Below are positions 10,937 to 63,575 of a stretch of DNA of 64,000 nucleotides, one piece after another. Below the pieces are notes generated by a model. It saw only the letters and a program-made list of their open reading frames with translations. It made no database searches and was not told where the DNA came from. Within the stretch, counting starts at the first letter, position 1, and each line of letters starts with the position of its first letter. Origin of the DNA: Thermoleophilia bacterium (GTDB lineage: Bacteria; Actinomycetota; Thermoleophilia; BMS3ABIN01). Both the position numbers and the translations under genes were made by a program. The DNA lies in contig JAGVMV010000006.1 in assembly GCA_020053595.1 (NCBI GenBank), positions 49,325-113,324 on the forward strand. The letters run 5' to 3'.

Positions 10937-11884
10937 ATGATGACAGATGGATATATTCGACCCAAGGAGCTTGAATTGGGTTCCCTGCTCGGCAGGTTCT
11001 TCCTTTTGCTTTTTCTTATGATGATTCCGTTGGCGGGCGCGGCCTGTTCTGACGGTGAAAGCTTGCCGTTTTCTCCGGGCACCGTTTCAACGTCCACATC
11101 CGCGGACCTCCGTATCTCCATAGCTGGCATGTTCACCCCGAAGGAAACCTACTCGATTTATTCGGATCTGCTCGATTATATTGGTGAAAAGACCGGGCGC
11201 TCAACCATCCTGCAGCAGACCGGCAGTTATTCGAGTGTAAACGACCTGTTGGCACGCAAGGAAACTGACTTCGCGTTCCTGTGTTCTGGGGGTTACGTGG
11301 AGGCCTCTCATCATATGGGCCTGGTTCCTCTGGTGGCACCAGTGGTCAATGGGCAGCCGCTTTATTATTCCTATATCCTCGCTCGTGAGGGCAGTGGCAT
11401 TCAAAAATTCGAAGATTTTCGTGGCCGCCGCTTTGCCTTTGGCGATCCCCTGTCGCTGACCGGCACTCTGTATCCAATGTCGCTTATAAAACTCTCGGGC
11501 AACGGGTTGGACAGTTTTTTTGGAGATTACATTTACACCAACAACCACGACAATTCCATTAAGGCCATGATGGAAGGTGTGGTGGACGGGACAGCTGTCG
11601 ACAGTTTTATTTTTGACTACCTGAAGGCGCGTAATCCGGCCAGTGTCGCGGGGCTGGTGATAATTGAGAAATCACAGCCTTTCGGCTCGCCGCCCATTGT
11701 TGCTCGCCCGGGGCTACCGAAAGATTTGCGTGACCAGCTGATTCAAGTCCTCGTGGGGATGCAGGACGATCCCAAAGGCAGGGAAATCCTTACGCAGCTG
11801 GGAATCGAACGGTTTGTCCAGGTAGATGAATCTCTTTACGAGTCGGTTGAGCAACTGGAGGCGGAAATGACAATCCGTCAGTAA
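10937..11884 (+). CDS. PhnD/SsuA-like periplasmic substrate-binding lipoprotein (sensor accessory?)
   Basis: Signal peptide with a lipobox-like LAGAAC, and an ABC phosphonate/sulfonate-binding-like fold. Sits directly upstream of a histidine kinase gene. Confidence 0.65.
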   Translation: MMTDGYIRPKELELGSLLGRFFLLLFLMMIPLAGAACSDGESLPFSPGTVSTSTSADLRISIAGMFTPKETYSIYSDLLDYIGEKTGRSTILQQTGSYSSVNDLLARKETDFAFLCSGGYVEASHHMGLVPLVAPVVNGQPLYYSYILAREGSGIQKFEDFRGRRFAFGDPLSLTGTLYPMSLIKLSGNGLDSFFGDYIYTNNHDNSIKAMMEGVVDGTAVDSFIFDYLKARNPASVAGLVIIEKSQPFGSPPIVARPGLPKDLRDQLIQVLVGMQDDPKGREILTQLGIERFVQVDESLYESVEQLEAEMTIRQ

Positions 11885-11898
11885 CGGGGGAGATTTTA

Positions 11899-13386
11899 GT
11901 GCGGCGCCTCTCATCTCGCATAGCGAACGCAAGCCTGGGGAAAAAAGTCGCCGGGCTGCTGGCGTTAACAATCGCGCTTGCGGGCATCATTCTCTCGGGC
12001 GTGGGCACCCAAAGGCTGTACGGCCTTCTCATAGAGCAAAAACTTGATTCTTCCGAGCAGATCACCAGCGCGCTGGCCTCATCGGCGCTTCCTGATATTC
12101 TCACGCATGACTTCATAAGTTTACAGGACAGCACCGATCAGGTTCTGGCCCGTGACCGCCGTGAGGAAGTAGTCTACGTAGCAGTCTACGACACAAATGG
12201 TGCTCCCCTGGTTCATTCATCACGCCTTGATGGCGCGCAAGTTCCCGAAGAGACCCGGGAAATACGAAAGATCAGCGCGCCGCTGACCATTAACAACCGG
12301 AGCTTCGGCCGGATAGACATGTATATTTCGCTGAACCGGATCGAGGGCACCGTTTTATCCACGGTAATCTCGTTGGGATTGATTCTGGCGCTTGTGGTCG
12401 TGGCCTCCTCGGTGGGTATGGCGTTGGTGGCTTATCGAGTGGTAGTGGTGCCGGTGCAGAAGTTGGCCGTAAGCGCCAGGCAGATATCCGAAGGTAACCT
12501 CGATCTAAAAATCCCGGTTAAGTCGTACGACGAACTCGGTGGGCTGTCTGACGATTTCAACCGCATGGCGGAAAGTCTCAAAGAGCGTCAGGAGGAACTT
12601 CAGATCGCCTACGAAAAACTGGAAAGAAACTACCAGGCCATCAGGGAAGCATACAAGCAGCTTCGCGATCTGGACCGGATGAAATCAAAGTTCATCGCCG
12701 TGGTCTCCCATGAACTGCGGACGCCGCTATCTCTGATAAAGGGATATGTCGAGACCATGGCCGCGGGCAATCTGGGAAAGGTAACGGCGTTGCAGCAGAA
12801 AAAGCTGGGAGTTATCGTCGATAGCGTGGACCGCCTCTCGGACATCGTTGACAAGTCCCTGGATTTCTCGGTCATTGAACAGGGTAAAATGGCCATCGAG
12901 AAACAGAAATTGCAGCTAAGTGAAATTATCGAGCAGGTAGTGGATGAATTCGCTCTGGAGATATCGGGAAGGAAGTTAATCCTGGAGCAGCAGATCCCCC
13001 GGAAATTGCCGCTCATGCTCGGAGACAAGGTCAGGTTGCACCAGGTGTTTCATAACCTGGTAGCCAACGCGGTTGATTTTACATCTGAAAAAGGAACGGT
13101 TGGCATCCACGCGGGTTTTGATTCAGAAAAGAAGCTCAATGTGGTTGTAGTCACGGATACAGGACCGGGCATATCCAGTGAAGACCTGGAGCACTTGTTT
13201 TCTCCTTTTTATCAGGTGGAAAGTCCGATAATCCGCAAACATCCTGGAGTAGGCCTGGGTCTTGCTATCGCCAAGGGGATCGTGGAGCAGCACGGAGGGA
13301 ACATCGACGTAGTGAGTGAAGTGGGCAAGGGTTCGACCTTCACAATATCGTTTCCCGTGCTCGATGGTGTGAGAGATCAGATATGA
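11899..13386 (+). CDS. sensor histidine kinase (HAMP-HisKA-HATPase)
   Basis: TM, a periplasmic loop, TM, HAMP, an H-box (SHELRTPLS) and N/G boxes. Confidence 0.85.
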   Translation: MRRLSSRIANASLGKKVAGLLALTIALAGIILSGVGTQRLYGLLIEQKLDSSEQITSALASSALPDILTHDFISLQDSTDQVLARDRREEVVYVAVYDTNGAPLVHSSRLDGAQVPEETREIRKISAPLTINNRSFGRIDMYISLNRIEGTVLSTVISLGLILALVVVASSVGMALVAYRVVVVPVQKLAVSARQISEGNLDLKIPVKSYDELGGLSDDFNRMAESLKERQEELQIAYEKLERNYQAIREAYKQLRDLDRMKSKFIAVVSHELRTPLSLIKGYVETMAAGNLGKVTALQQKKLGVIVDSVDRLSDIVDKSLDFSVIEQGKMAIEKQKLQLSEIIEQVVDEFALEISGRKLILEQQIPRKLPLMLGDKVRLHQVFHNLVANAVDFTSEKGTVGIHAGFDSEKKLNVVVVTDTGPGISSEDLEHLFSPFYQVESPIIRKHPGVGLGLAIAKGIVEQHGGNIDVVSEVGKGSTFTISFPVLDGVRDQI

Positions 13387-14196: not shown

Positions 14197-14565
14197 AAGC
14201 AGATCAAGTCAGTAGTTACGGCTGGCTCAGGGCTTCCCGACAACTCCATTGAAGCTGTTTTTGTTGTAGATCACCCATACCACTTGCTTTTCTGGACACT
14301 TCTCTTTCCTCCCTGTTCGTCTGTACCGTAATAAGAGTAACTATATAATAGAAATTATTTACCTATTGTAGTTATATTATGACGTACTGTGCCAAAAGCA
14401 GATTAATTGTGAAATGCACAAGTCATACAACATCAGGGAAATCCCCTATACACTATCTGCTTAATTAAAGTTAATATCAGGCCGAGAAAGTATAAGCGGT
14501 GCATAAATTAATATATTCTGTGTTTCTAGCTTGATAGAAAGCATATCCGCATAACTTCACAGGCA

Positions 14566-14597
14566 AGATGCACAATATATTGTGATATGCACATCAC
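14566..14597. promoter_or_regulatory. overlapping dyad-symmetric operator-like motifs in an AT-rich promoter region upstream of the cytochrome/molybdoenzyme operon
   Basis: CACAATATATTGTG is a perfect 14-bp palindrome and overlaps the near-palindrome GTGATaTGCAcATCAC. The 13-bp motif TGTGA(A/T)ATGCACA also occurs at 14409-14421. Local GC is about 38% against about 60% genome-wide. Confidence 0.3.
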
Positions 14598-14751
14598 GTA
14601 CTAGTTTGCGGGATAAGGAGGTGGAGGCGAACGGCATATATCATCAAGACCGCGGAAGAGGAGTGTTCGTCCGGCGTGGATTCCAGGTCAAGCACTCAGA
14701 CATATAACGAAAAACAAGTTCAATTGGGAGGTGAAGGAATTGAGATTTAAG

Positions 14752-15654
14752 ATGAGCCTAAAGAAGAAGGTTATTGCAATATCAATGTTGGCGGCGTTGC
14801 TTACGTTCGTCATTGGACTGAGCGCAATCTTCGCTTCTTCAGCGCCCCCGGCGAGTCCTCACTATAGTTATAGCGAGTGCACCGCCTGTCATTCGGATCA
14901 GATCGATTACCACAGCACTGCATCCAGCCATCAATACTCGGAGTGCATCTCCTGCCATGGCGATCGCACGGACGAGCAATCCCTTTACGACGCTTCTTAC
15001 GGTCAGTATTTTGATGGTCCGCACAAGGTGCACCTGACCTCCAGCCAGCTTTCGTTTACCTGTACCCAGTGCCATGAATCAGTGGATATCAGGGAAAAGT
15101 CCGCGGCTTCAGTCAGGCGACAGGTATCGATGGAGTGCTCCAAGTGCCACAGTCCCTTCCCGACATCAATGAATCCTGCATGGGCCACGCAGGACTGCAC
15201 GACATGTCACACGGACTGGCAGAGCAGCCATTCATCCGATCCCTCGATCAACACGGCGAATATCGCACCAGCCGACTGCATTGGTTGCCACGGAGGAAGA
15301 TCCTGGTACCTGTCGGGTATGGCTTCGGCTAGTCTGGCCAGAGGCAACACCTACTGGGCCAGCTATGACGACTACTCGGCCAGAAAACTGTCGGTCGACT
15401 TCTCTATCTCGAACAGCGGTTCGGGAACGGCAAACGGTTTGAACTTATCCAACGTTCTGTCTACGAACGGAGTGGGCGCGATAACGACGTTGCCACTGTC
15501 TCTTGGGGATCTGTCGCAGGACACCGCCGCCGATTTCACGATGGTGTATTCGGTGCCGAATGGAGTCGGATCCTTCAGGACTTCACTGTACGCCAATGCT
15601 ATAAATGACGACGATCAGACGCAATACTGGCCTTCACCGCCGCCCTCTCCCTGA
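14752..15654 (+). CDS. secreted hexaheme c-type cytochrome with a C-terminal non-heme beta-rich domain and a Pro-rich tail
   Basis: N-terminal signal/TM segment and six CxxCH motifs (CTACH, CISCH, CTQCH, CSKCH, CTTCH, CIGCH). A ~120-aa Ser/Gly/Asn-rich domain follows and the protein ends in PSPPPSP. A GTG at 14731 is an alternative start. Confidence 0.8.
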   Translation: MSLKKKVIAISMLAALLTFVIGLSAIFASSAPPASPHYSYSECTACHSDQIDYHSTASSHQYSECISCHGDRTDEQSLYDASYGQYFDGPHKVHLTSSQLSFTCTQCHESVDIREKSAASVRRQVSMECSKCHSPFPTSMNPAWATQDCTTCHTDWQSSHSSDPSINTANIAPADCIGCHGGRSWYLSGMASASLARGNTYWASYDDYSARKLSVDFSISNSGSGTANGLNLSNVLSTNGVGAITTLPLSLGDLSQDTAADFTMVYSVPNGVGSFRTSLYANAINDDDQTQYWPSPPPSP

Positions 15655-15705
15655 GGCGGAAAGAGCGAAGCTCTGAAAAGCCAAAACGGGAAAAGGAGCG
15701 GTATC

Positions 15706-15861
15706 GTGATAGCGAAAGGTAAGAAAACAGACAAACAGGAAAAAAGGCGCAAGGCCTACGCGAAGCCGGAACTGGCAATGCACGACAACTTGAAGGATAT
15801 AACCTTCGAGTGCCAGGCCTGGCAGTGCAGCGTTGTAGTGCCGCCGCCTCCGGAGCACTAG
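15706..15861 (+). CDS. small ORF (51 aa), Lys-rich N-terminus with a C-terminal CxxxC-VVVPPPPEH
   Basis: GTG start preceded by AAGGAG at 7-nt spacing. Lies between the cytochrome and the molybdoenzyme gene. It is absent from the ORF track only because it is shorter than 60 aa. Confidence 0.35.
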   Translation: MIAKGKKTDKQEKRRKAYAKPELAMHDNLKDITFECQAWQCSVVVPPPPEH

Positions 15862-15944
15862 GAGAAAGCAAATGCGTCGGAATGACAGAAATAATAAAGC
15901 GCAGCATCAAATGCGCTGGAAGCCAAGCGAAAGAGGTGAGCTAA

Positions 15945-18557
15945 ATGACAGATGAAAGCAGCAAGGGCGGTAGCCTTGAAATAAACCCAAGCGTCTCACG
16001 CCGTTCCTTTCTGAAATGGGGAAGCGCCATCAGCGGCACGGCGGTAGCCAGCGTTCTGATGCCTGGCGGTCTCCTCAAGCAGGTCTTCGGTACCGGCACG
16101 GCCAAGGCCGCCGATGAAGGCAGCTGGATCTATACCGCCTGTAACATGTGCGGCGGTCAATCCGGCATCAAGGTGAACGTGATCGACGGCGCCGTCAGGA
16201 AGATCGAGCCCAGCGAATACAATGCCGCAAGCATCGCCAACACCTGCCTGAACGACCCGGCGGACCCGGCCGACTTCCTGAACAACTGCGCCGGCAGCGG
16301 TTGGGGCGGCACCATGTGCCCCAAGGGCAACTCGGCGATCAAGTCACTGTATGACCCGGATCGCGTCCTGATGCCCATGAAGCGTGATCCGGCCTCTCCA
16401 AGGGGGGAGGGAGCAGTGTTCAACCCGATCTCCTGGGACGACTGCCTCAATGAGATCAAGATAAAACTGCAGGACCTAAAGGCTGAGCAGAGCGGCAACG
16501 GCGCCCATCAGCTCCTCTGGTTCGGGGAGGATCACTCCTTTACCCATATCCAGCAGGACTTCATGAAATGCTACGGGTCGTCGAACTACATGAACCACTC
16601 CAACCTCTGCGACACCAGCCGCAAGAGGAACTATAGCGTGCCTCTCGGCGACGAGCGGCCGCTGGCGGACTTCGCCCATGCCAAGTACGCCATGCTCTGG
16701 GGCTGGAATCCCCTGTCGGCCATCAAGTGGGCGCACCTGCCCCGCATTATCAGGCAGTTCTTTGACAATGGCGGGCGCATGGTCTGCGTCGACCCGGTCT
16801 TCAGCCACACCGCCGCGACAGCCTGCCGCAACGGCGGCGAGTGGGTGCCGCTCAAGCCCGGCACGGACGGCGCCATGGCTCTGGCGATGGCGTACGTTAT
16901 CATCAACGAGAGCCGTTACGACGCAGCCTTCGTCTCCAGCTATGTCCTCGGATTCAACGAGTATAAGGACTATGTGAACGGAGTCAGCGACGGAACGCCC
17001 AAGACGCCCGCCTGGGCTGAGACCAAGACCGGCGTACCCGCCGCGACCATCGAGCGGCTGGCCCGTGAGCTGGCCGATCCGGCCAACCACCCGGCAGTCA
17101 TCGATATCTGGTCCGGACCCGGCCAGCACACCAACGCGACCCAGGGCGGTCGCGCGGTTACCGCCCTCCTGGCGCTCACCGGCCAGATCGGCGGCAAGGG
17201 CCAGATGGTGTACCCGAACAAGAAGGGCTCGAAGCACCGCACCATGACCAACACGCACGACACCGGCGCCGGCAAGTCGCTGGCGAGGCCGAGGGTCGAC
17301 GGTTATAACTTGTCCAAGGCCTCCGGTGGATATCCATCGGCACACAGTTCAGGCATCTATGTCCGGGCCCGTGACGTAATGCTCGATTCGGACCTGTCGC
17401 CCGCGGCCTACTGGGCCAAGTACCCCTACCTGGGCGCCACTGAGGCCGAGGCTGACACCAACCGCCCCAAAGCGGTAATGTTCATGTTCCAGAACTGGGT
17501 GATGTCGATTCCCAACACGCAGAAGAACATCGACGCCATCAACAAGATGGACCTGGTCATCTGCTGCGACACCCATCTCAGCGAGACCGCCCAGATGGCC
17601 GACTACATCATCCCGGGTTCCCATGCCCTGGAGCGCTACGACTACAACTCCAACTGGGTGACCCACTACAGCCTGAGTCTGCGGCAGCCGGTGGTAAGCT
17701 CCTGGATCGGCAACCCCTACCGCTTCGAGGCCGGGGTTCTCATGGAACTGGCCACCAGAATGGGTCTGGCCGGCGACGCCGGCAGCACCTCTCCGGGCAA
17801 CTTCAGCATGACCTACGAGCAGTTCCTGGGTCAGGAGCTCCTGGGTGACTCGACCCTGAAGGCCAGCATCCACCCGACTGGAGATCTCACCAACATGGCG
17901 GACTGCGACACGGCTTTGAACAACTTCAAGGCGTTGCCGGGAGTGCATTGGCCATCCCCGACCGAGCTGGCCGCGAATGTCGCCAGCTGGGGCACCAAGT
18001 ATGGCAAGAAGAGCAAGCTGATGCAGGGCAGCGCGGAGAAGATAGTCCTGAACTCCGCCAGCATCTACGACAACGGTGTCGCGGGCACCGGCATCACCGG
18101 CTATAAGTCACTGCAGACTGCCGGTTACGACGCGCTTCCGAAATATGCCGATCCGGAAGACTCGCCGGCGAACAATCCCGGTTATCCCCTCCATCTGGTC
18201 AACTGGAAGCAGGTCGAGCACACGCACTCGCGGACGTTCAACAACGTGTGGCTCATGGAGATGAAGGGGCATAACCCGCTCTACATCAACACGGCGACCG
18301 CCGCCAGCCTGGGCATCGTCGATGGCGACGCCATCAAGGTGGAATCGCCTTACGCGACAGTTGACGCCACGGCCTTCGTCACCGAGGGCATCGAGCCGAG
18401 CACCGTGGGCATGTTGCACGGTTTCGGGCACACGGCGCTGGGAGAGGTCGCCAAGGGCAAGGGCACGTCGGACGGCGCGCTGCCGGCCGGCAAAGCCGAA
18501 TCTATTTCCGGCCAGGCAATCCATAAGGAGACGGCCGTGAAAGTCTACGGGGCCTAG
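15945..18557 (+). CDS. Tat-exported molybdopterin oxidoreductase catalytic subunit (CISM family; substrate unknown)
   Basis: Twin-arginine signal (SRRSFLKWGSAISGTAVAS), molybdopterin oxidoreductase and dinucleotide-binding domains, 870 aa. The N-terminal Cys spacing is atypical (C-x2-C then distant Cys residues). Confidence 0.88.
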   Translation: MTDESSKGGSLEINPSVSRRSFLKWGSAISGTAVASVLMPGGLLKQVFGTGTAKAADEGSWIYTACNMCGGQSGIKVNVIDGAVRKIEPSEYNAASIANTCLNDPADPADFLNNCAGSGWGGTMCPKGNSAIKSLYDPDRVLMPMKRDPASPRGEGAVFNPISWDDCLNEIKIKLQDLKAEQSGNGAHQLLWFGEDHSFTHIQQDFMKCYGSSNYMNHSNLCDTSRKRNYSVPLGDERPLADFAHAKYAMLWGWNPLSAIKWAHLPRIIRQFFDNGGRMVCVDPVFSHTAATACRNGGEWVPLKPGTDGAMALAMAYVIINESRYDAAFVSSYVLGFNEYKDYVNGVSDGTPKTPAWAETKTGVPAATIERLARELADPANHPAVIDIWSGPGQHTNATQGGRAVTALLALTGQIGGKGQMVYPNKKGSKHRTMTNTHDTGAGKSLARPRVDGYNLSKASGGYPSAHSSGIYVRARDVMLDSDLSPAAYWAKYPYLGATEAEADTNRPKAVMFMFQNWVMSIPNTQKNIDAINKMDLVICCDTHLSETAQMADYIIPGSHALERYDYNSNWVTHYSLSLRQPVVSSWIGNPYRFEAGVLMELATRMGLAGDAGSTSPGNFSMTYEQFLGQELLGDSTLKASIHPTGDLTNMADCDTALNNFKALPGVHWPSPTELAANVASWGTKYGKKSKLMQGSAEKIVLNSASIYDNGVAGTGITGYKSLQTAGYDALPKYADPEDSPANNPGYPLHLVNWKQVEHTHSRTFNNVWLMEMKGHNPLYINTATAASLGIVDGDAIKVESPYATVDATAFVTEGIEPSTVGMLHGFGHTALGEVAKGKGTSDGALPAGKAESISGQAIHKETAVKVYGA

Positions 18558-18575
18558 AAAGGAGGGTGATTTAAC

Positions 18576-19127
18576 ATGGCTGCAAACCCCAATCAGCTCG
18601 GCTTTGAATACGATATGGTCAAATGTATCGGATGCAGGGCCTGCGAGGGAGCGTGCAAACAGCAGAACAACGTGGAGTTGGGAGTGCGTTTTCGGAGGGT
18701 GACCACTTTTAACGGCGGCACCTACCCGACTCCGTTCACCAACTACATGTCGATGGCGTGCAACCACTGTGAAAAGCCCGCCTGTGCGGCGGCTTGTCCG
18801 GTGGACGCGATCACCAAACGGGCCAGCGATGGCATCGTCATCATTGATAACAACAAGTGCAACGGATGCAAGCTGTGCATGGAGGCTTGTCCCTATGGTG
18901 CTCCACAGTATAACCCCGTGACCAAAAAGGTGGAGAAGTGCCATATGTGCTACACGCGCATCGACGCCGGCCTGTCTCCAGCCTGTGTGCAGACCTGCAT
19001 GGCGCGAGTGCTCAAGCATGGAGTGCTGTCAACACTGACAGGTGACAAGGGCAAGAACGTAGCCCACTTTGCCAATCCCAAACACACGCACCCGTCGATA
19101 CGGATTTCCCCGCCCGACAGGCAATAA
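18576..19127 (+). CDS. 4Fe-4S ferredoxin-type electron-transfer subunit (DmsB/PsrB-like)
   Basis: Four Cys clusters, including CxxCxxCxxxC-type motifs (CIGCRACEGAC, CNHCEKPACAAACP, CNGCKLCMEACP). Confidence 0.9.
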   Translation: MAANPNQLGFEYDMVKCIGCRACEGACKQQNNVELGVRFRRVTTFNGGTYPTPFTNYMSMACNHCEKPACAAACPVDAITKRASDGIVIIDNNKCNGCKLCMEACPYGAPQYNPVTKKVEKCHMCYTRIDAGLSPACVQTCMARVLKHGVLSTLTGDKGKNVAHFANPKHTHPSIRISPPDRQ

Positions 19128-19136
19128 GGAGTAAAA

Positions 19137-19781
19137 ATGGAAGCTCTGGACAACAAGATAATGGACAATGATACACGGACACGGATTGTTGTCTATGACT
19201 TCCTGAGGCGTGTGTTTCTGCACGAACCCACGGATGAGTTCTTCGGGCGCCTGGTTGAGAGTGGCATACTCGAGGATCTAAACGACCTGCCCGGCATCGA
19301 GAAGATGCGGTCTTATGTGCAATCGGCCCTCTCTTCCGGAGATATCGATGCAGTGCGGCAGGACTTCTACCAACTGTTCCTGGGACCCAGGCGTCTGAAG
19401 GCTCCCCCGTGGGAATCGGTTTACCGGTCGGAATTACGGCTGGTAAATCAAAAATCGACAACCGAAGTGCGGCAACTGTACGCGCGATTCGGGTTTGAGA
19501 CTGAAGCCGGCCAGCTGGAAGACCACTTCGGCACGGAATGTGACTTCCTCTTCAGGTTGTGCAGCCTCTTGGGAGTGATCGACAAGCACGGGCGGTACGA
19601 TCTCCTGGGCGTCCAGAAGCGCTTCATCGGGGATCATCTGCTTAAATGGGTGCCCGGGTTCGCGGAAGACATCATGAAAAACGCGCTTACCGATTACTTT
19701 CGTGGGCTAGGAGAGTTCGTGGGCTATTGGGTGCGCAATGAAGAAGAATACCTGGACACAGTGTGGTCTGAAAGCAAATGA
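19137..19781 (+). CDS. TorD/DmsD-family redox-enzyme maturation chaperone
   Basis: Conserved EDHFGTECDFL (E-x-DH) motif of the TorD family at about 210 aa, and an operon position after the catalytic and FeS subunits. Confidence 0.75.
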   Translation: MEALDNKIMDNDTRTRIVVYDFLRRVFLHEPTDEFFGRLVESGILEDLNDLPGIEKMRSYVQSALSSGDIDAVRQDFYQLFLGPRRLKAPPWESVYRSELRLVNQKSTTEVRQLYARFGFETEAGQLEDHFGTECDFLFRLCSLLGVIDKHGRYDLLGVQKRFIGDHLLKWVPGFAEDIMKNALTDYFRGLGEFVGYWVRNEEEYLDTVWSESK

Positions 19782-19829
19782 TGCATCAGTAGGGTCTGGA
19801 ATATTAAATGGAAAGACAGGTGAATTAAA

Positions 19830-20060
19830 ATGCCAAGCATAGGATGGCAGGAACTGGTTGTAGTCTTGGTGATAGCATTGATGATATTCGGTACCAAGCG
19901 TTTGCCCGAAGTTGGTCGTTCGATGGGCAGTGCCTTGAAGGAATTCAAAGCGGGGACTCAGGAAATAAAAGGAAAAACGAGCATTCGAGCGGAAGCGATC
20001 GCAGTTGAGCCGAAAAGCGTTGCCGCTGAGCCGAAAAGCGATGCCATCGAAACAATCTGA
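19830..20060 (+). CDS. tatA: twin-arginine translocase TatA/E
   Basis: N-terminal TM helix followed by the amphipathic GTKRLPEVGRSMGSALKEFK helix, 76 aa. Confidence 0.85.
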   Translation: MPSIGWQELVVVLVIALMIFGTKRLPEVGRSMGSALKEFKAGTQEIKGKTSIRAEAIAVEPKSVAAEPKSDAIETI

Positions 20061-20231: not shown

Positions 20232-20633
20232 ATGTGTGAGTCTCCAAAAAACAGAGCGATGGAAATACGGTCAAAAATCTGGATTGAAATCGATGGCAAG
20301 TGTGTGTTCAGCAAGGGGCGGGTAATCCTGCTCGAGGCCATCGAGCGGTATGGCTCCATAAACCGGGCCGCCGCCGAAACCGGTATTTCCTACCGGCGCG
20401 CGTGGGGGTACATCAAAGCCATGGAGAAAAGGCTGGGAATGGATCTGGTGGAGACGAAAACGGGAGGAGCTGGAGGGGGAGGCGCGACGCTCACTGACGA
20501 AGCGCGCCGCTTTCTGCTTGATTATGAGAGTCTGGAATCCGGCATCAACGAGCTTGTGGATAAGCGTTTCGGTGACATCTTCAAGGCTCAAAAAACCGCT
20601 AAAGTCGGGCGGCGTTATGCAAATTTGTCATAA
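20232..20633 (+). CDS. ModE N-terminal domain-like winged-helix regulator (no TOBE domains)
   Basis: ISYRRAWGYI...TGGAGGGGATLT matches the ModE HTH signature TGGKGGGGAxLT. Confidence 0.7.
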   Translation: MCESPKNRAMEIRSKIWIEIDGKCVFSKGRVILLEAIERYGSINRAAAETGISYRRAWGYIKAMEKRLGMDLVETKTGGAGGGGATLTDEARRFLLDYESLESGINELVDKRFGDIFKAQKTAKVGRRYANLS

Positions 20634-20662
20634 CCGACACAGTTTGATATCTGGAGGAAGTC

Positions 20663-21712
20663 ATGTGTGAAGTAGGCCAGGAAATAATATCTGTGAGGGA
20701 AGCCGTGGGCACTGTGTTGAGCCACGATATAACCGAGGTGAACCCGGCGAACGGCTTCAAAGGGGCACGGTTCCACCGGGGGCACGTTATCACGGAAGAG
20801 GACGTGGAGAAGCTTCTCGATCTGGGCAAGGAGCATCTGTATATCCTCGAAATTCGCGAAGATCAGATGCATGAAAACGACGCTGCGCAGATGATGGCGA
20901 CGGCGATAGCTGGTGAGAATGCGGTGTTCATACCGGAGCCTTCCGAGGGGAAAATAAATATCAGGGCCGCGGTGGATGGACTACTCAAGGTGGACGTCGC
21001 AGCGTTGGAAAGTTTTAACGGCGTCGGCGCGGTGATGTGCGCGACCCGTCACAGCAATACCGTTGTGAAGCAGGGTGATGTCATAGCAGGAACGCGCGCC
21101 ATTCCCCTCGTGGTTGATGAGAAGCCGGTGCGCGATGCAGTCGCGATCGCCGCCGGGGCGGGAGGCATTGTATCTGTCCTGCCGTTAAAGCAGGCCCGGG
21201 TGGCACTCGTAATCACGGGCAACGAAGTATACAAGGGTCGTATCAAGGACGCTTTTGAGCCGGTGATCAGGAAGAAGGTCGAGGATCTCGGCTCTACAGT
21301 CGTGGAGGTCGTTAAATGCCCGGACAATGTGGGAGTGATCAGGGCAGCTCTGGAGCAGGTGAAGAGCAATCAGGCCGATCTTGTCGTCATGACGGGTGGG
21401 ATGTCGGTCGATCCCGACGACGTTACTCCGCTGGCGGCGGGCGCGGCGGGCGCGGAGATTACCGCTTATGGTTCAGCGGTGCTTCCCGGGACGATGTTCA
21501 TGGTCGGCTACTTCAAGAATGGCACACCAGTGCTGGGCGTGCCCGCCTGCGGGATTCATCACCCGCGCACAATATTCGATCTCGTGCTACCCCGGGTGCT
21601 CGCAGGGGAAACAATCACTGACAAGGACATAGCCCGGCTCGGCCACGGTGGCATGTGTCTCGATTGCCCTGAGTGCAGATTTCCTGTTTGTCCATTCGGT
21701 AAGGGCTCATGA
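20663..21712 (+). CDS. MoeA-like molybdopterin metal-insertion protein (MoCF_biosynth domain), no MoeA C-terminal domain, Cys-rich tail
   Basis: VALVITGNEV, GGMSVDPDD and PGTMFMVG resemble the MoeA VALFSTGDEL, GGVSVGEAD and PGKPFAFG motifs. C-terminal CLDCPECRFPVCPFGK. This is paralog A; paralog B is at 31656. Confidence 0.65.
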   Translation: MCEVGQEIISVREAVGTVLSHDITEVNPANGFKGARFHRGHVITEEDVEKLLDLGKEHLYILEIREDQMHENDAAQMMATAIAGENAVFIPEPSEGKINIRAAVDGLLKVDVAALESFNGVGAVMCATRHSNTVVKQGDVIAGTRAIPLVVDEKPVRDAVAIAAGAGGIVSVLPLKQARVALVITGNEVYKGRIKDAFEPVIRKKVEDLGSTVVEVVKCPDNVGVIRAALEQVKSNQADLVVMTGGMSVDPDDVTPLAAGAAGAEITAYGSAVLPGTMFMVGYFKNGTPVLGVPACGIHHPRTIFDLVLPRVLAGETITDKDIARLGHGGMCLDCPECRFPVCPFGKGS

Positions 21713-21721
21713 AGAGTTGTC

Positions 21722-22342
21722 ATGAAGACGCTTGAGGAACATCTTGCCGAAACTGCGGCCTTCCATGGGAGCAACTGTCCGGGTCAGACGCTGGGCGTCA
21801 GGATGGCCCGGGCCGGCCTGACGCGGATCGGCATCGACGATCCGCTTTCCGGCCGCTGGCGAAAGCAGCTCATGGTTTACGTGGAAATAGATCGTTGTGC
21901 CGCCGATGCGGTGATGAGCGTGACCGGGTGCCGTGTGGGTAAACGAACGCTCAAAATCGTGGACAATGGCATCATGGCAGCCGGCTTCCTGAACCTGGAA
22001 ACTGGCAAAGCAGTCCGGGTAGTGGCCCGCGAAAAAGCACGGGCCCTGGCCGACAAATATGCGCCGGGAATCGAAGACAAGTACGAGCGTCAACGGAAGG
22101 CCTATGAAGTCATGCCCGACGAGGAGTTGTTCGATTTCGAGGACGTCAAGATCGTGGTCCCGGGTCAGGACATGCCCGGCAGTCCTATTTCGCGGGTGCA
22201 ATGCAGCAAATGCGGTCATTCGGTCCAGGACTTGCGGGAAGTGTGGCAGCCAGGTCTCATCTTCTGCAAGCCATGCGCCCAGGGGAGCTACTTCACAGCG
22301 ATCAACCGCTGCGATCCGGAACCGGAGGCGACCTCGGTATGA
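21722..22342 (+). CDS. FmdE/FwdE-family protein with C-terminal zinc ribbon
   Basis: FmdE-like N-terminal domain (HGSNCPGQTLGVRMA) and a C-x2-C...C-x2-C ribbon (CSKCGH...CKPCAQ). Confidence 0.75.
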   Translation: MKTLEEHLAETAAFHGSNCPGQTLGVRMARAGLTRIGIDDPLSGRWRKQLMVYVEIDRCAADAVMSVTGCRVGKRTLKIVDNGIMAAGFLNLETGKAVRVVAREKARALADKYAPGIEDKYERQRKAYEVMPDEELFDFEDVKIVVPGQDMPGSPISRVQCSKCGHSVQDLREVWQPGLIFCKPCAQGSYFTAINRCDPEPEATSV

Positions 22343-23577
22343 CGCCTGCGGCTCTTTCTAATATAAACGGAACAACCATGCCGGCGTTCATTTTCAGCAG
22401 GCGGGAAATTGCCGGTGCGCTGGGCGATATCGGGGTACTGTTGCCGTTGATGGCGGGGCTGATTCTCGTATCCGGCCTTTCCGCGTTCACGGTTTTCCTG
22501 CTCACGGGGGTGACATATCTTGCCGCGGGCATATATTTCCGTTTGCCGGTGCCGGTTCAACCTCTCAAGGCCATGGCCGCCATTGCCATAGCCGGTGGCG
22601 CCGGCGCCGAGGAACTGGCAGCTGGTGGCATCATCATGGGGGTGTTGCTCTTGTTCCTTGGCATGACCGGCCTGGCCTCGAAACTTACAAGACTTTTTTC
22701 TCCCTGGACAGTCAAGGGGATACAGTTGGCGGTGGGGCTGATGTTGATCAAGGCCAGTATTCCCTTCATCACTGGCGGTGGCTCGGCGGTCTGGAAGGCA
22801 GCCGCGGTATCTGGGCCGACAGGATCGGCGGCCCTGTTGCTGGCGGGAGTCTCTCTGATATTGCTGTTACTTTTCAATCAAAGCCGGAAGGTTCCCGCTT
22901 CCCTTGCCGTGCTGGCTCTGGGCTTCACGTTGAGTCTCATCCTCGCTGGCCCAGCCATCATCGGCTCACTTGAGGTGTCTGGGCCGGCGTTGCCTTCCAT
23001 TTCAATCCCCGGACGGGAGAGCTTTATCGCGGCCCTTTTCCTGCTGGTTATTCCACAGGTGCCGGTTACTTTTGGTAACTCGGTGATCGCTACGACCGAC
23101 GTGGCCCATTCCTATTTCAAAAAGAGAGCAGAGCGGGTTACACCCAAAGCGCTTTGCGCTTCGCTGGGAATTGCCAACACAGCCATCGGCCTGCTAGGCG
23201 GCATGCCGGTCTGCCATGGCTCCGGCGGCATGACTGCGCACTATCGCCTCGGCGCCCGTTCCGGCGGCGCGGCTGTGCTCATGGGGGTACTGCTCGTATC
23301 CCTGGCTCTGCTGTTCGGCGACTCCGCGGTCTATCTGATACTCATGCTGCCCCTGCCGCTTCTGGGAGCATTCATAATTTATGTGGGGATTGAACACGCG
23401 CGCCTGGTACTTGAGCTACTTGAACACAAGCTCTCCCTGTTGGTCGCTGTGGCCATAGGGGTGTTGTCGCTTCTTTGGGGCAATATTGCGGTAGGCATGG
23501 TAATAGGGATTGGGGCCAGCCTTATTGCCGGCGCCGCCGGGTTGTTCAGAGAATATTTGTTGCCAGGTGAAAATTAA
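22339..23577 (+). CDS. MOT1-family (sulfate-permease-like) molybdate transporter
   Basis: EIAGALGDIGVLLPL and GGMPVCHGSGGMTAHYRLGARSGG match the two MOT1 signature motifs. About 12 TM helices. ATGA overlap with the upstream stop. Confidence 0.65.
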   Translation: MTPAALSNINGTTMPAFIFSRREIAGALGDIGVLLPLMAGLILVSGLSAFTVFLLTGVTYLAAGIYFRLPVPVQPLKAMAAIAIAGGAGAEELAAGGIIMGVLLLFLGMTGLASKLTRLFSPWTVKGIQLAVGLMLIKASIPFITGGGSAVWKAAAVSGPTGSAALLLAGVSLILLLLFNQSRKVPASLAVLALGFTLSLILAGPAIIGSLEVSGPALPSISIPGRESFIAALFLLVIPQVPVTFGNSVIATTDVAHSYFKKRAERVTPKALCASLGIANTAIGLLGGMPVCHGSGGMTAHYRLGARSGGAAVLMGVLLVSLALLFGDSAVYLILMLPLPLLGAFIIYVGIEHARLVLELLEHKLSLLVAVAIGVLSLLWGNIAVGMVIGIGASLIAGAAGLFREYLLPGEN

Positions 23578-23611
23578 CTCATTGCAGGCAATCGATATCA
23601 AAGGCAAGCAA

Positions 23612-24808
23612 ATGGCTGGAACAGGCAAAATCAATAACTCAGCGGGGAAACGGGATTTCTCGGTTGCGATTCTGGCTGGTGGTGAAAGCAGCCGCATGGG
23701 CAAGAACAAGGCGCTGGAGATCCTGGGGGGCAAGACGGTCATCGCCCACGTTATCGATTCTCTCCGGCCCCTCACCAATGACATGTTTATCGTGGCGGGT
23801 GATGTGGCGGCTTACGAGGGGTTCGGGCTACCCATCTGCGCCGACCATTACGATTTCCGGGCGTCTCTGGTGGGCATTTATTCCGCCATCGCCTCCTCGC
23901 GGGAGGAACGATGCCTCGTTGTCGCCTGCGACATGCCGTTCGTGGAACCCGCCCTTGCCCGTCTGTTGGCCAGCCTTTCCGCGGGATACGATGCCGTTGT
24001 GCCGGTGAGCCCGCGCGGCTGGGAGCCCCTCCTGGCCGTCTATTCGAAATCATGCCTGAAAGCAATGCGGGAACGGATAAAGAGCGGAGACCTTGCGATC
24101 CATCATGTGCTGGATAACCTGAAGGTCAGATATGTAGAGCTGGCGGAGATGGCTGTCTGCTGCGACCCCGCACTGGTCTTCATCAATATCAATAACGTGG
24201 TGGAGCTTGAAAAGGCCAATCTGCTGGTTCCCAGAGTCCGCAAATTTCGCCGACAGACCGGGTCAGCGGCAGGGAAAAACGGCTCGCCTCCGCTGGTGTG
24301 CTTTGTAGGTAAAAAGAATTCAGGCAAGACCACCTTCCTGGAAAAGCTCGTGCGGGAGCTGATATCCAGAGGGTTGACCGTGGCATATATCAAGCACGAT
24401 GTTCATGGTTTTGAAATGGACCGCGAAGGGACAGATACCTGGCGCTTGACGCAGGCGGGAGCGCATTCGGTGATGATTTCTTCTCCCTTCGCGATGGCGT
24501 CTTTGGAAAAGGTTGGGGAGGAAAAAAATCTTGACGAGTTGGCGAAGCGGGTGGATGGTTCCGCGGACATCATCGTCGTCGAAGGCTTCAAGTGCGCCGG
24601 CGCCGACAAGCTGGAGGTATCCCGCAGCGCGCGGAGCGATTCCCTGGCCTGTTCTGAAGATGAATTATTGGGGATTATTTCGGATCGCGAGGAAGCAGCC
24701 AGCGGCCTTCCAGTATTTGCAATCGATGATATTTCCGGCGTCGCGGACTTTCTTGCTGACCATTACGAGTTTGACGCCGGTCGGAAGGATGGGGAAATTG
24801 GCTTCTGA
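23612..24808 (+). CDS. mobA: molybdenum cofactor guanylyltransferase MobA fused to MobB
   Basis: MobA N-terminus (LAGGESSRMG, DMPF) and a MobB P-loop (GKKNSGKTT). Confidence 0.8.
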   Translation: MAGTGKINNSAGKRDFSVAILAGGESSRMGKNKALEILGGKTVIAHVIDSLRPLTNDMFIVAGDVAAYEGFGLPICADHYDFRASLVGIYSAIASSREERCLVVACDMPFVEPALARLLASLSAGYDAVVPVSPRGWEPLLAVYSKSCLKAMRERIKSGDLAIHHVLDNLKVRYVELAEMAVCCDPALVFININNVVELEKANLLVPRVRKFRRQTGSAAGKNGSPPLVCFVGKKNSGKTTFLEKLVRELISRGLTVAYIKHDVHGFEMDREGTDTWRLTQAGAHSVMISSPFAMASLEKVGEEKNLDELAKRVDGSADIIVVEGFKCAGADKLEVSRSARSDSLACSEDELLGIISDREEAASGLPVFAIDDISGVADFLADHYEFDAGRKDGEIGF

Positions 24809-24866
24809 ATCAGGAAAAAACAGGGGTTTTGATCGTGGCAAGGGCCATGACGCTCAAGCATTTCAT

Positions 24867-25802
24867 GTGATCGACTATCTGCGTATATCCATTACCGATC
24901 GCTGCAATTTCCGCTGCGCTTACTGCATGCCGCGAGCGGGGGTGGGCTATCGGCCCCACGACGAGATTCTCAGTTATGAGGAAATCATACGGTTCACTCG
25001 CGCGACCGCGAGACTGGGAATCACCCGGGTCCGCATAACCGGAGGCGAACCGCTGGTTCGGCGGCAATGTCCGGAGCTGGTGGCGAAATTGGCGGCGATA
25101 CCCGGCATCGAGGACCTGTCGCTGACCACCAACGGCGCTCTGTTGACCGAGCACGCCGAGGCTCTCAGGGATGCCGGCCTTTCCCGCCTCAATATAAGTA
25201 TTGACAGTCTGAATCCGGACCGGTTTTCACGGATTACGCGGGGAGCTACTCTGGCGCCGGTGCTGGCAGGCCTGGAGATGGCACTGGAGCTCGGTTTTGC
25301 GCCGGTAAAGGTGAATGCCGTCATGATACCTGGCATTGAGGACGAGCTCGAACAGTTTGTTGCTCTGGCACGAGAAAATCCCGTGCACGTCAGATTCATT
25401 GAATTCATGCCTATCGGGTGCCACCAGGAGGATGTCCGGAATTTCATTTCCAGACAAAGGATTCTTGAAGGTTTGTCCAGATTTGGAGATTTAATGCCTG
25501 TCGATTCGCCCGTCGGCGGCGGTCCGGCGCGCTACTTCCGATTCGATGGCGCCCGCGGGACTATCGGATTTATCAGCTCCATGAGTGACCACTTCTGCGA
25601 AAACTGTAACCGTCTGCGGCTGACAGCGGACGGTAAGTTGCGCAACTGTTTATTCTCTGACGACGAAGTTGACATACGTCCTTATATAAACGGAGACTCG
25701 ATGGAACTTGCGAAAGTTATTATTGACTCCATGAACAGCAAGAAATTCGATCGGACTGGCGAGAAACCGTTGGCACGTACCATGTCACAGATTGGTGGAT
25801 AA
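24867..25802 (+). CDS. moaA: GTP 3',8-cyclase MoaA (radical SAM)
   Basis: YLRISITDRCNFRCAYCMP and a C-terminal Cys cluster (CENCNRLRLTADGKLRNC). The start is uncertain: GTG at 24867 is the first in-frame start after the mobAB stop. Confidence 0.85.
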   Translation: MIDYLRISITDRCNFRCAYCMPRAGVGYRPHDEILSYEEIIRFTRATARLGITRVRITGGEPLVRRQCPELVAKLAAIPGIEDLSLTTNGALLTEHAEALRDAGLSRLNISIDSLNPDRFSRITRGATLAPVLAGLEMALELGFAPVKVNAVMIPGIEDELEQFVALARENPVHVRFIEFMPIGCHQEDVRNFISRQRILEGLSRFGDLMPVDSPVGGGPARYFRFDGARGTIGFISSMSDHFCENCNRLRLTADGKLRNCLFSDDEVDIRPYINGDSMELAKVIIDSMNSKKFDRTGEKPLARTMSQIGG

Positions 25803-25878
25803 TTAACTTTCAGCCAATATGCCTGATCTTCGCAGGCTTGTCCAGACGAATAAACGAGGGGCGGAAGGGAATGATTTT

Positions 25879-26343
25879 ATGAAAAAAGAACTGTCGCACA
25901 TCGATAAAGAGGGAAGAGCGCGCATGGTTGACGTGGGCGACAAACCGGTGACGGTCCGCACCGCCCGTGCCGCCGGGCTCGTGACCATGGCTCCGGAAAC
26001 GATGCGTCTCTTGATTGACCGGGAGATTCCAAAGGGCGATGTCCTCTCAGTGGCGCGAGTAGCGGGCATCATGGCCGCAAAGGAGACTTCCCGGCTCATT
26101 CCCATGTGCCATCCGCTGGCAATAGAAAATATCAAGGTCGACTTTGAGATCGAGGAAGAGGTGCCAGCCGTGAATATCGAGGCGATTGTGCGCGTTTCCG
26201 GCAAGACTGGCGTGGAAATGGAGGCCCTCACGGCCGTGTCCATGGCCGCGCTCACTATCTACGACATGTGCAAGGCCGTGGATAAAGGAATGGTTATCAG
26301 CGACATCCGGTTGCTGGAAAAGCATGGAGGTAAGTCAGGATGA
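25879..26343 (+). CDS. moaC: cyclic pyranopterin monophosphate synthase MoaC
   Basis: [14 protein letters not shown]...CHPL...[11 protein letters not shown] with an upstream GGAAGGGA. Confidence 0.85.
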
Positions 26344-26786
26344 TGGCGTCGATAGTCTCAATTAACATTTCCACCGCCAAGGGCGAACGAAAAAAACCGG
26401 CTGGCCAGGCGGAGCTGCTGGTGGAGCATGGCATCGTTGGCGACGGGCATGCGGGCAACTGGCACCGGCAGGTCAGCCTGCTGGCGGCGGAAAGCATCGA
26501 GAAGATGAAGAAAAAGGGCCTCGACGTTGGTCCCGGCGATTTCGCTGAGAATGTGACAACCAGCGGTATCGATTTGCCGGTACTGCCCATAGGTACGAGG
26601 CTGAAACTGGGTGGTACACTAGTCGAGGTGACCCAGATCGGCAAGAAGTGTCACAACCGCTGTGAGATTTACAGGCAGGCAGGCGATTGCGTTATGCCAA
26701 GAGAGGGTATTTTTGTGAAGGTGATTGAAGGCGGCAACATTGCTGATGGAGATGCGATCGATTTACTGGAGGAGGTGGGGGAATGA
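26340..26786 (+). CDS. MOSC-domain protein
   Basis: MOSC beta-barrel signature (GDGHAG...GENV...G), 148 aa. Confidence 0.75.
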
Positions 26787-27274
26787 GTTTCACCGCCGCC
26801 GTTATTACTGTCAGCGATAAAGGCGCTAACGGCGAGCGTAAAGACGAGAGCGGTGACGCTCTTGAGCGTTTGCTGATCGATGTGGGAGCTGTATCGGTGG
26901 CGAGGGTCATGGTCCCCGACGAACGCGATCAAATCTCCGCTGTATTACGTGAATATTGTTGTGAAAAAAAAGTCGATCTTGTCATTACTACCGGCGGAAC
27001 CGGCCTGACAACAAGGGACGTCACTCCGGAGGCTACCCGGGACGTCATCGACCGTGAAGCGCCGGGCATCGCCGAAGCCATCCGCGCTCAATCGATGAAG
27101 ATAACCCCGCGGGCGATGCTCTCCCGGTCGGTGAGCGGCGTTTGCGGCGAGTCGCTGATCATCAACTTTCCTGGCAGCCCCAAAGCCTGCGCTGAATCTT
27201 TTGCCGTTGTCAGGCCGGTTCTCGGCCACGCCCTGGAGTTGCTGGGGGGAGCCGGCGGGGAGTGCGCCCGCTGA
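26783..27274 (+). CDS. mogA: molybdopterin adenylyltransferase MogA/MoaB
   Basis: AVITVSDKG...ITTGGTGLTTRDVTPEAT. Confidence 0.85.
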   Translation: MSFTAAVITVSDKGANGERKDESGDALERLLIDVGAVSVARVMVPDERDQISAVLREYCCEKKVDLVITTGGTGLTTRDVTPEATRDVIDREAPGIAEAIRAQSMKITPRAMLSRSVSGVCGESLIINFPGSPKACAESFAVVRPVLGHALELLGGAGGECAR

Positions 27275-27535
27275 TGACCTCGTAGAAGACATCCCTGCTA
27301 ATCAGATATATTTAGCCGGCACCCCTTGCATTTGAAAAAACTATTCTGATATTCTTGCTCACAGAGGTGTGACTGGCGTTCAGTGGATAACCACTCGGGA
27401 GCATCTCCGCTGGTGTCAAAAAAACCAGCCGATTGGCCGGACGCCTGGGCCTCCAGATAGCTTGGATGGCTTGGGTGTTTTTTCATCCCCGGAGCCTTCA
27501 ACCGGACTGTTCGCCGTTGTCAGAAAGGGAATAAA

Positions 27536-63549: not shown

Positions 63550-63575
63550 ATATGAATCGTCGCTCTATAAAAAAC

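Follow-up and report, generated by a model that had tools for sequence, protein, structure and literature searches.

Introduction

Molybdoenzymes of the dimethyl sulfoxide (DMSO) reductase superfamily are assembled with the aid of TorD-type chaperones, their catalytic A subunit is exported by the twin-arginine translocation (Tat) pathway with the iron-sulfur (FeS) B subunit riding along, and electrons pass through B and the FS0 cluster to the molybdenum. ArrAB of Shewanella has no dedicated membrane anchor and is supplied with electrons by the multiheme cytochrome CymA. PcrABCD, NapAB/NapC and TorCAD likewise combine an exported molybdoenzyme, a multiheme cytochrome link and a chaperone of the TorD/NarJ family, with no NrfD protein, and together with ArrAB and CymA they are precedents for the locus analyzed here. 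This locus lies in a 64,000-nucleotide stretch of contig JAGVMV010000006.1 from a Thermoleophilia bacterium (forward strand, positions 49,325 to 113,324; the whole stretch is referred to below as the window). It comprises an operon for a hexaheme c-type cytochrome, a small peptide, a two-subunit molybdoenzyme, a TorD-type chaperone and TatA, preceded by genes for a binding protein, a histidine kinase and a response regulator.

The closest described systems resemble this locus in different parts. PhsABC and PsrABC (Salmonella, Shewanella, Thermus, Wolinella) share with it a Tat-exported subunit containing molybdenum bis(pyranopterin guanine dinucleotide) (Mo-bisPGD), a Cys ligand to the metal and a four-cluster FeS subunit; they differ in that the window has a multiheme cytochrome instead of the NrfD-type PhsC or PsrC, carries TorD and TatA within the operon, and encodes an enzyme of a separate clade in which Ser or Thr replaces the third FS0 cysteine. 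MolyABC of sulfur-disproportionating Desulfobacterota, whose gene cluster (MOLY) was described by Allioux in 2022 (PMC9676032) and in the ISME Journal in 2026 (PMC12998232), is also an anchor-less set of A, B and a TorD-type chaperone, predicted to be extracytoplasmic and of unproven function, and MOLY genomes also have a MOSC protein and an FdhA resembling that of the window. By contrast, MolyA has the canonical CEMCFWRC motif, and neither a cytochrome partner nor an ArrX-like sensor has been described for the cluster. ArrAB with ArrXSR (Chrysiogenes arsenatis, Shewanella) shares the three-component sensor with a related binding protein, the set of A, B and TorD-type chaperone and, in ArrA, an H-S-x2-C-x4-K block around the molybdenum ligand, but the (R/K)GRY position of ArrA holds (S/G)EDH in the family described here, and the window regulator is of the LytTR type, not of the CitB/FixJ or AtoC type. 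PcrABCD, NapAB/NapC and TorCAD belong to other DMSO-reductase clades with other molybdenum ligands, and the window cytochrome has no useful sequence relation to NapC, NrfH or TorC.

A preliminary description of the window had proposed a self-contained, inducible-looking respiratory molybdoenzyme module outside the characterised clades, and gene content, family scores and a phylogenetic tree bear this out. The novelty lies in the catalytic clade with its FeS motif, in the cytochrome dedicated to it and in its combination with an ArrX-like sensor; the superfamily and the architecture were already known. With slightly more confidence than doubt, we interpret the locus as a substrate-induced extracytoplasmic respiratory system whose molybdoenzyme would act as the reductase for an arsenate-like oxyanion.

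Results

Gene content of the locus

The plus strand from 10.9 to 27.3 kb forms a single co-directional block of sensor trio, spacer, cytochrome operon and molybdenum genes. Domains and families were called with NCBIfam and Pfam models, using the NCBIfam cut-offs. As far as TatA, the block reads as follows.

10937..11884, + strand: PhnD-type (ArrX/AioX-type) periplasmic binding protein, the sensor component; 315 amino acids (aa), PF12974 at 1e-59
11899..13386, + strand: membrane histidine kinase with HAMP, HisKA and HATPase domains (Pfam); position kept in the related loci L001-L004
13411..14196, + strand: response regulator with a receiver and a LytTR DNA-binding domain (PF00072, PF04397)
14197..14730, no strand: A+T-rich regulatory spacer of 534 bp with two 15-nt repeats and several inverted repeats
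14752..15654, + strand: hexaheme c-type cytochrome with six CxxCH motifs, an N-terminal hydrophobic helix, a beta-sandwich domain and a PSPPPSP tail
15706..15861, + strand: small peptide gene, 51 aa, GTG start, AAAGGAG 7 nt upstream
15945..18557, + strand: catalytic subunit of the Mo-bisPGD type, 870 aa, with Molybdop_Fe4S4, Molybdopterin and Molydop_binding domains and a Tat motif
18576..19127, + strand: FeS subunit, a four-cluster ferredoxin of the DmsB type, 183 aa, without signal peptide
19137..19781, + strand: TorD/DmsD-family maturation chaperone (PF02613 at 6e-28)
19830..20060, + strand: TatA/E translocase subunit (TIGR01411 at 70 bits, over the cut-off of 53.9)

All operon elements that the preliminary description had placed here, including the operon's own TatA and TorD-like chaperone, were present at or beside their reported positions. 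The cytochrome gene has alternative starts at TTG 14740 and GTG 14731. The FeS subunit contains 16 Cys residues making four complete cluster motifs, matches PF13247 at 9e-30 and scores 177 bits with TIGR02951, under its cut-off of 214. Between the small open reading frame (ORF) and the catalytic gene lies a hairpin, AGCGCA-(8 nt)-TGCGCT (15898-15917), whose coding strand has no T-run and which may be an mRNA processing or stability element.

A catalytic family with its own FS0 signature

The catalytic subunit has the domains (PF00384 at 5e-33, PF01568 at 3e-17, PF04879 at 7e-6), the four-cluster ferredoxin partner and the protein ligand to molybdenum that characterise the DMSO reductase, or complex iron-sulfur molybdoenzyme, superfamily. 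It scored under every NCBIfam equivalog cut-off, the best model being that for PhsA (NF012032; 290.5 bits against a cut-off of 694), while the models for the DmsA/YnfE subfamily, ArrA (NF041714) and TtrA gave 243, 152 and 101 bits against cut-offs of 778, 1600 and 1750. The best solved structures were Thermus PsrA (174 bits) and Shewanella ArrA (127 bits). Reference sequences were taken from the supplement of PMC12998232 (PhsA, MolyA) and supplemented with Escherichia coli DmsA. Identity of the window protein is 25-29% with PhsA, 28% with a cytoplasmic PhsA-like protein, 25-27% with MolyA and, in the N-terminal half only, 30% with DmsA; relatives at about 40-47% identity join it in a clade of its own. 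In a neighbour-joining (NJ) tree of 22 family members with PhsA, MolyA and DmsA (739 columns, 60 replicates), the family formed one group apart from the references in 65% of replicates. The PhsA sequences of Salmonella, Shewanella and Helicobacter were separate from it, and the window protein and P0001-P0003 made up a subclade with 100% support, sister to the remaining family. This placement, which the preliminary description had called for, revealed no tight clustering with PhsA, MolyA or DmsA, and it is provisional because full sequences of ArrA, ArxA, PsrA, SrrA, SreA and AnrA were not in the tree.

Identity with the MOLY cluster was ruled out by the 25-27% identity, the separate branch and the different FS0 motif (the published orthogroup tree was not reproduced). 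NaoABC, the nitrate-dependent Sb(III) oxidase, was also discarded as a relative, being NapA-like with a Rieske subunit and of unrelated architecture. Among the scored candidates, 1462 database proteins fall into the family at E<=1e-20. Their source names include Nitrospirae, Rokubacteria, Armatimonadota, Chloroflexi, Actinomycetota and others, mostly from metagenomes, and the Joint Genome Institute (JGI) labels relatives thiosulfate/polysulfide reductase.

Alignment to solved structures in the PDB identified the predicted molybdenum ligand, a further point raised in the preliminary description, as Cys222, which corresponds to Cys173 of Thermus PsrA and Cys193 of ArrA and is invariant in the 22-sequence alignment. 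H218, S219 and K227 of the window protein match ArrA H189, S190 and K198. Signatures were counted in the 120 best relatives of the catalytic subunit: the block H-S-x-L-C-D-x2-R-K around the ligand is present in 93 and the twin-arginine motif, which is SRRSFLK in the window, in 114.

The N-terminal cysteine pattern had been described as non-canonical, and it is real. The window protein reads C66-x2-C69-x3-S73...C101...C115...C125, with Ser73 at the usual position of the third cysteine. Among the 118 relatives that could be scored, the motif C-N-M-C-G-G-Q is followed by Ser in 83, by Thr in 28 and by Cys in only 7. Since Ser or Thr thus occupies the third FS0 position in 111 of 118 relatives, the unusual pattern is a property of the whole family and not of this one protein. 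The fourth FS0 cysteine (MCPKGN) is invariant in the 22-sequence alignment, and Cys101 and Cys115 lie in an insertion limited to the closest relatives. By contrast, PhsA and MolyA retain the canonical CEMCxxRC. Judging from these residues, the FS0 site could hold a [3Fe-4S] cluster, a [4Fe-4S] cluster ligated by Ser or Thr or, in the window subclade, a cluster ligated by an inserted Cys. At the position of (R/K)GRY, which Glasser in 2018 reportedly recognised as the arsenate-binding motif of ArrA, 99 of the 120 relatives have (F/M)(S/G)-E-D-H, and the window protein reads F-G-E-D-H-S.

An ArrX-like sensor upstream of the operon

Although the binding proteins AioX, ArxX and ArrX have the same pocket, the arsenic species that they bind differ, the ligand being in each case the substrate of the adjacent enzyme (PMC5908839). 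AioX and ArxX sense arsenite, and ArrX of C. arsenatis bound neither thiosulfate nor tetrathionate (PMC5908839). As noted in the preliminary description, the operon of the window lies directly downstream of the genes for a binding protein, a histidine kinase and a LytTR regulator and of an A+T-rich spacer bearing inverted repeats. Compared with solved relatives, the binding protein scored 171 bits with C. arsenatis ArrX (6x6b), to which it is 34% identical over 255 aa, 99 with AioX, 69 with PtxB and 35 with PhnD. Six of the seven AioX pocket residues listed in PMC5908839 (Tyr88, Cys106, Tyr131, Ser161, Ser163, His192, Asp210) are identical, and Ser163 is replaced by Thr. The binding protein is accordingly predicted to have the pocket of AioX, ArxX and ArrX, including the diagnostic Cys106, which is missing in PhnD. 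A Cys follows its N-terminal hydrophobic stretch, and it may be a lipoprotein.

Given the similarity to ArrX, the conserved pocket and the binding, by such proteins, of the substrate of the neighbouring enzyme, we read the trio as an ArrXSR-like system. In L009, a more distant member of the family, genes for a PF12974 binding protein, a kinase and a regulator are likewise present, and ArrXSR-like genes have been found beside a non-ArrA enzyme of the DMSO-reductase family in a Methanoperedens element (PMC13444090). The choice of candidate substrates, which the preliminary description had left entirely open, is narrowed by the ArrX-like sensor.

The spacer contains two repeats, ATTGTGA(A/T)ATGCACA, at 14406-14420 and 14579-14593, 173 bp apart; each holds inverted half-sites TTGTG...CACA(A), making them candidate regulator sites. 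A promoter consensus scan of the spacer gave nothing above shuffled expectation, and the operon leader contained no riboswitch or other Rfam family.

A multiheme cytochrome in place of an NrfD-type anchor

No gene for an NrfD/PsrC/DmsC-type anchor was found in the window operon or in the operons of L001-L004, and none was called within 10 kb at L001, where the catalytic protein is 93% identical. The preliminary description had suggested that a cytochrome replaces this anchor. Within the family, L009 and L069 have FeS and NrfD genes beside the catalytic gene and no cytochrome, whereas three- or five-heme cytochromes are encoded directly upstream of A, B and TorD in L005-L008, and the window clade also combines cytochrome, A, B and TorD. 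Because one catalytic family is thus associated either with FeS and NrfD proteins or with a multiheme cytochrome, we conclude that the cytochrome takes the place of the anchor. The exchange is, however, not peculiar to this locus, the cytochrome being a conserved partner of the enzyme family.

Close homologues of the window cytochrome (62-94% identity) occur only in the same subclade. Its hemes 2-6 align with the five-heme protein of L005/L006 and its hemes 2-4 with the three-heme protein of the Nitrospirae locus L007/L008, the common heme-core block being H-x2-HL-x-S...C-x2-CH-x-SVD-(L/I)-RE-x-S-(A/S)A...C-x2-CHSP. Relative to the five-heme version, the window protein shows three additions: an N-terminal heme, a hydrophobic helix of 22 residues that may serve as a signal anchor or be a long signal peptide, and a C-terminal domain. 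Its score with TIGR03153 (23 bits against a cut-off of 134) does not place it in the NapC/NrfH/CymA group; models for NrfH, CctA and MtrC match it by heme motifs only, a sequence search of solved structures returned only marginal matches of the same kind, and AlphaFold modelled the heme part with a predicted local distance difference test score (pLDDT) below 50.

Conservation in related loci

The order from binding protein through chaperone is kept in six loci, in which the catalytic protein is 93% (L001/L002), 71% (L003) or 66% (L004/L011/L012) identical to that of the window; all six come from metagenome-assembled genomes titled Thermoleophilia or Actinomycetes (uncultured Actinomycetota). 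This recurrence indicates that the arrangement is not due to chance. TatA adjoins the chaperone in L001-L003 and follows the cofactor genes in L004, and the molybdenum cofactor island is also kept in most of the six loci, with the same set in L001, L002 and L004. The small ORF was not called by the gene caller in L001 and L002, yet it is conserved as a protein in all six loci.

Between the LytTR regulator and the cytochrome, a secreted repeat protein of 500-544 aa is encoded on the opposite strand in L001 (6843-8477), L002 (4339-5850) and L004 (6798-8312), all (-). It has four internal repeats, Y-x-F-x-WYDNN...WGMNG-x-W, and no Pfam match, and its gene is absent from the window and from L003. 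In Gram-negative family members the operon is preceded by a gene for a beta-barrel-like outer-membrane protein (L005, 6202-7458; L069, 4696-5832). A porin shared among these relatives was considered and is unsupported, the L005 and L069 proteins having no detectable similarity.

The small peptide and the cytochrome tail domain

The C-terminus of the cytochrome (about 15316-15630) consists of a tail domain of ~110 aa. The structure prediction proposed in the preliminary description was run, and AlphaFold modelled residues ~190-295 as a confident beta-sandwich (block pLDDT 70-95); a fold search returned generic immunoglobulin (Ig)-like matches only, and Pfam a weak CARDB match (E=0.015). The extra non-heme domain preceding the PSPPPSP tail therefore stands, but the extracellular electron transfer that it had been taken to suggest does not follow. 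Since proteins of the rhodanese-like, Ig-repeat and beta-helix kinds also terminate in this domain, it is by itself no evidence for such a function.

The small ORF, which had been counted as part of the respiratory enzyme module, was found to belong with the tail domain instead. Its family comprises 43 clusters at 50% identity, each of 34-85 aa, with the pattern Y-x-K-P-x-L-x-K-x-(D/E)-N-L-K-D-I-T-F-(E/D)-C-x2-W-Q-C-S-V-x-V-P-P; the window peptide reads Y-x-K-P-x-L-x3-D-N-L-K-D-I-T-F-E-C-x2-W-Q-C-S-V-V-V-P-P-P-P. Metagenomes were scanned with the narrower peptide alignment A3, the wide alignment A4 being too diverse, and a tail-domain profile was built from cytochrome C-termini. The scan yielded 51 peptide loci, 50 of which contain 55 peptide genes. 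An ORF ending 34-98 nt upstream of the peptide motif bears the tail domain for 38 of 47 testable peptides and, in the other direction, a peptide follows 38 of the 41 domain-bearing ORFs that could be tested. The tail-domain proteins are otherwise diverse: rhodanese-like proteins, surface proteins with Ig repeats, a NosD-like beta-helix protein and a second multiheme cytochrome are among them, and on one short contig the next gene encodes thioredoxin reductase, not a molybdoenzyme. The pair occurs in the window at 15316-15861 and in loci L014, L016 and L017-L067. We conclude that the small ORF and the tail domain are a separate, lineage-specific two-gene module, possibly a new kind of system.

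The N-terminal half of the peptide fits Y-x2-P-x-L-x3-G-x5-T-x, which we take to be the leader of lasso peptides and PqqA to which PqqD-like domains bind. A short, invariant core follows, which cannot form a lasso ring because its positions 7-9 have no Asp or Glu. No NCBIfam precursor family matched the peptide, nor did any relevant Pfam family even at E<=1, and no maturase, PqqD-like, radical-SAM or transporter gene was recurrent across the 51 peptide loci. A known precursor of a cofactor or of a ribosomally synthesized and post-translationally modified peptide (RiPP) was rejected for lack of a family model match and of a recurrent maturase neighbour. The resemblance to PqqA and lasso precursors lies in the leader-like N-terminus and the short core, whereas the tie to a beta-sandwich tail domain and the missing maturase neighbour set the peptide apart.

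Molybdenum cofactor genes and the wider window

The co-directional block continues beyond TatA.

20232..27274, + strand: molybdenum cofactor island, co-directional, encoding a ModE-like helix-turn-helix (HTH) protein, MoCF_biosynth, FmdE, MOT1, MobA/MobB, MoaA, MoaC, MOSC and MogA/MoaB-like proteins

MOT1 is a molybdate transporter, and in L007, the Nitrospirae relative, the operon is likewise followed by genes for FmdE, HTH_1 and MoCF_biosynth proteins. Paralogous MoCF_biosynth proteins of ~350 aa are encoded at 20663-21712 and 31641-32702, one after each molybdoenzyme gene set. The second set includes an FdhA-like protein (27536-31663) with 2Fe-2S, GltD-like flavin, 4Fe-4S and molybdopterin domains, in which an in-frame TGA (30032-30034, within HCART-U-HAPTVAGL) is a probable selenocysteine codon; directly upstream lies a ZMP/ZTP riboswitch (27359-27457, +; 53 bits against a gathering score of 39). 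This FdhA-like gene with its probable selenocysteine codon and the CdhD gene that adjoins the locus in L001 and L002 give the operon an anaerobic context.

At the edges of the window are a gene for a sigma-54 activator (Sigma54_activat and HTH_8; 56-967, +) and three tandem tRNA genes (63477-63771, -). The closest relatives of this genome are labelled Actinomycetota, which to our knowledge generally lack sigma-54, and either its taxonomic label or the lineage itself may be out of the ordinary.

Discussion

Most likely, electrons flow in this system toward the reduction of a terminal acceptor, and the most likely class of substrate is an arsenate-like tetrahedral oxyanion, As(V) in the first place and Sb(V) or a relative in the second; we infer both the direction and the substrate. 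That the element concerned is either arsenic or antimony seems to us about as likely as not, and arsenate or antimonate reduction specifically is a tentative assignment. We take the host to be an anaerobic, probably single-membraned, uncultured lineage of Actinomycetota.

Such a system might work as follows. Outside the membrane, the ArrX-like protein would bind the oxyanion and signal through the histidine kinase to the LytTR regulator, which would switch the operon on at the A+T-rich spacer. The TorD-type chaperone and the products of the adjacent cofactor genes would help to load Mo-bisPGD, with Cys222 as ligand, into the catalytic subunit, and this subunit would pair with the signal-less FeS subunit so that both are exported via Tat, aided by the operon's TatA. 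The A-B pair would then dock outside on the hexaheme cytochrome, which its N-terminal helix and tail domain would keep at the membrane or the cell surface. The cytochrome would move electrons between a quinol or cytochrome pool and the enzyme, as FeS and NrfD proteins would in other branches of the family; it might itself oxidise quinol, and would link the complex to the membrane quinol pool directly or via another cytochrome.

Several observations weigh against reduction of an arsenate-like oxyanion. An identity of 34% is too low for the ligand of ArrX to be transferred safely to the binding protein, and the pocket residues do not set specificity (PMC5908839). At the substrate funnel, where ArrA has (R/K)GRY, the family has a conserved acidic (S/G)-E-D-H, which is unlike an anion pocket. 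Of the arsenic resistance genes arsC, acr3 and arsB, none was seen in the annotated half (approximately) of the window or in the flanks of L001-L004, where one ArsR-type HTH protein was present. By sequence, the nearest characterised enzymes are sulfur-compound reductases. Regarding the electron partner and the clade, similarity of the cytochrome to NrfH is negligible and its helix may or may not be cleaved, and the monophyly of the family has modest support (65% of 60 NJ replicates) in a tree without ArrA, ArxA, PsrA, SrrA, SreA or AnrA.

The nearest enzymes make it necessary to consider that the window protein is itself a sulfur-compound reductase of the Psr/Phs/MOLY type, acting on polysulfide, thiosulfate, tetrathionate or elemental sulfur, with the ArrX-like protein sensing a sulfur oxyanion or another anion. 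PhsA is its best NCBIfam model and Thermus PsrA its best solved structure, JGI names its relatives accordingly, the molybdenum ligand is Cys as in Psr and Phs, and the anchor-less layout of A, B and TorD is like that of the MOLY cluster, for which a role in sulfur disproportionation has been proposed. TtrS and ThsS, which sense tetrathionate and thiosulfate, likewise have sensor domains of the PF12974 type. However, the score is far under the PhsA cut-off, PhsA and MolyA are no more than 25-29% identical to the protein, and the family branches outside these two groups in the tree and is missing the canonical CEMCxxRC that both possess. Moreover, the binding protein is much nearer to ArrX than to other solved members, and it was ArrX of C. 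arsenatis that bound no thiosulfate or tetrathionate. We therefore regard a sulfur substrate as unlikely, though far from negligible.

A different objection is that electrons might flow the other way. Outside the cell, the enzyme might oxidise a reduced substrate (a metalloid species such as arsenite or antimonite, or another compound) and hand the electrons to the cytochrome, from which they would reach an acceptor. Where a periplasmic molybdoenzyme oxidises its substrate, a soluble c-type cytochrome typically takes up the electrons. With only three conserved FS0 cysteines, a [3Fe-4S] cluster as in arsenite oxidase would be possible; the acidic E-D-H would suit uncharged As(OH)3 better than an anion; and AioX and ArxX, with the same pocket, sense arsenite. 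Yet the genomic context, with genes of the acetyl-CoA pathway, fits a strict anaerobe, no high-potential acceptor system is obvious in the vicinity, the binding protein scores 171 bits with ArrX and 99 with AioX, and in other branches of the family the enzyme is coupled to NrfD, as is usual for reductases linked to quinol. Oxidation thus appears improbable. That the locus encodes a non-catalytic electron-transfer complex like Qrc or alternative complex III (ACIII), with a molybdopterin-like subunit devoid of cofactor, is barely credible: the order of hexaheme cytochrome, molybdopterin subunit and FeS subunit mirrors qrcABC and the QrcB model (NF041783) gives 157 bits, but against a cut-off of 440, and the ligand Cys and its surrounding block are conserved, a dedicated TorD, TatA and a complete adjacent island for molybdenum cofactor synthesis and molybdate uptake are present, and a QrcD/NrfD subunit is not.

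Reduction of an arsenate-like oxyanion is thus the interpretation that we retain for the enzyme. Taken jointly, the presence in anaerobic Actinomycetota of a non-ArrA clade of respiratory arsenate or antimonate reductases and of a new peptide/tail-domain module is a possibility that we put forward with considerable reserve. As part of this joint proposal, the leader-like Cys-x4-Cys peptide may be bound or joined to the tail domain and needed for export, anchoring or surface function. The association of the two genes is statistically strong, and it touches on RiPP-like peptide biology and on protein display in single-membraned anaerobes.

Members of this family are routinely labelled thiosulfate/polysulfide reductase. 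If the label is wrong, metagenome-based inferences overstate the sulfur cycle and miss a different process, which may be respiration of arsenic or antimony. The window locus is the most informative member of the family because the ligand of its sensor is directly measurable. The three-cysteine FS0 motif is also relevant to the ways in which the first electron-transfer cluster can vary in these enzymes. If our interpretation is true, the locus would be the first recognisable member, with a clue to the substrate, of a large clade distinguished by three conserved FS0 cysteines and a cytochrome partner of its own.

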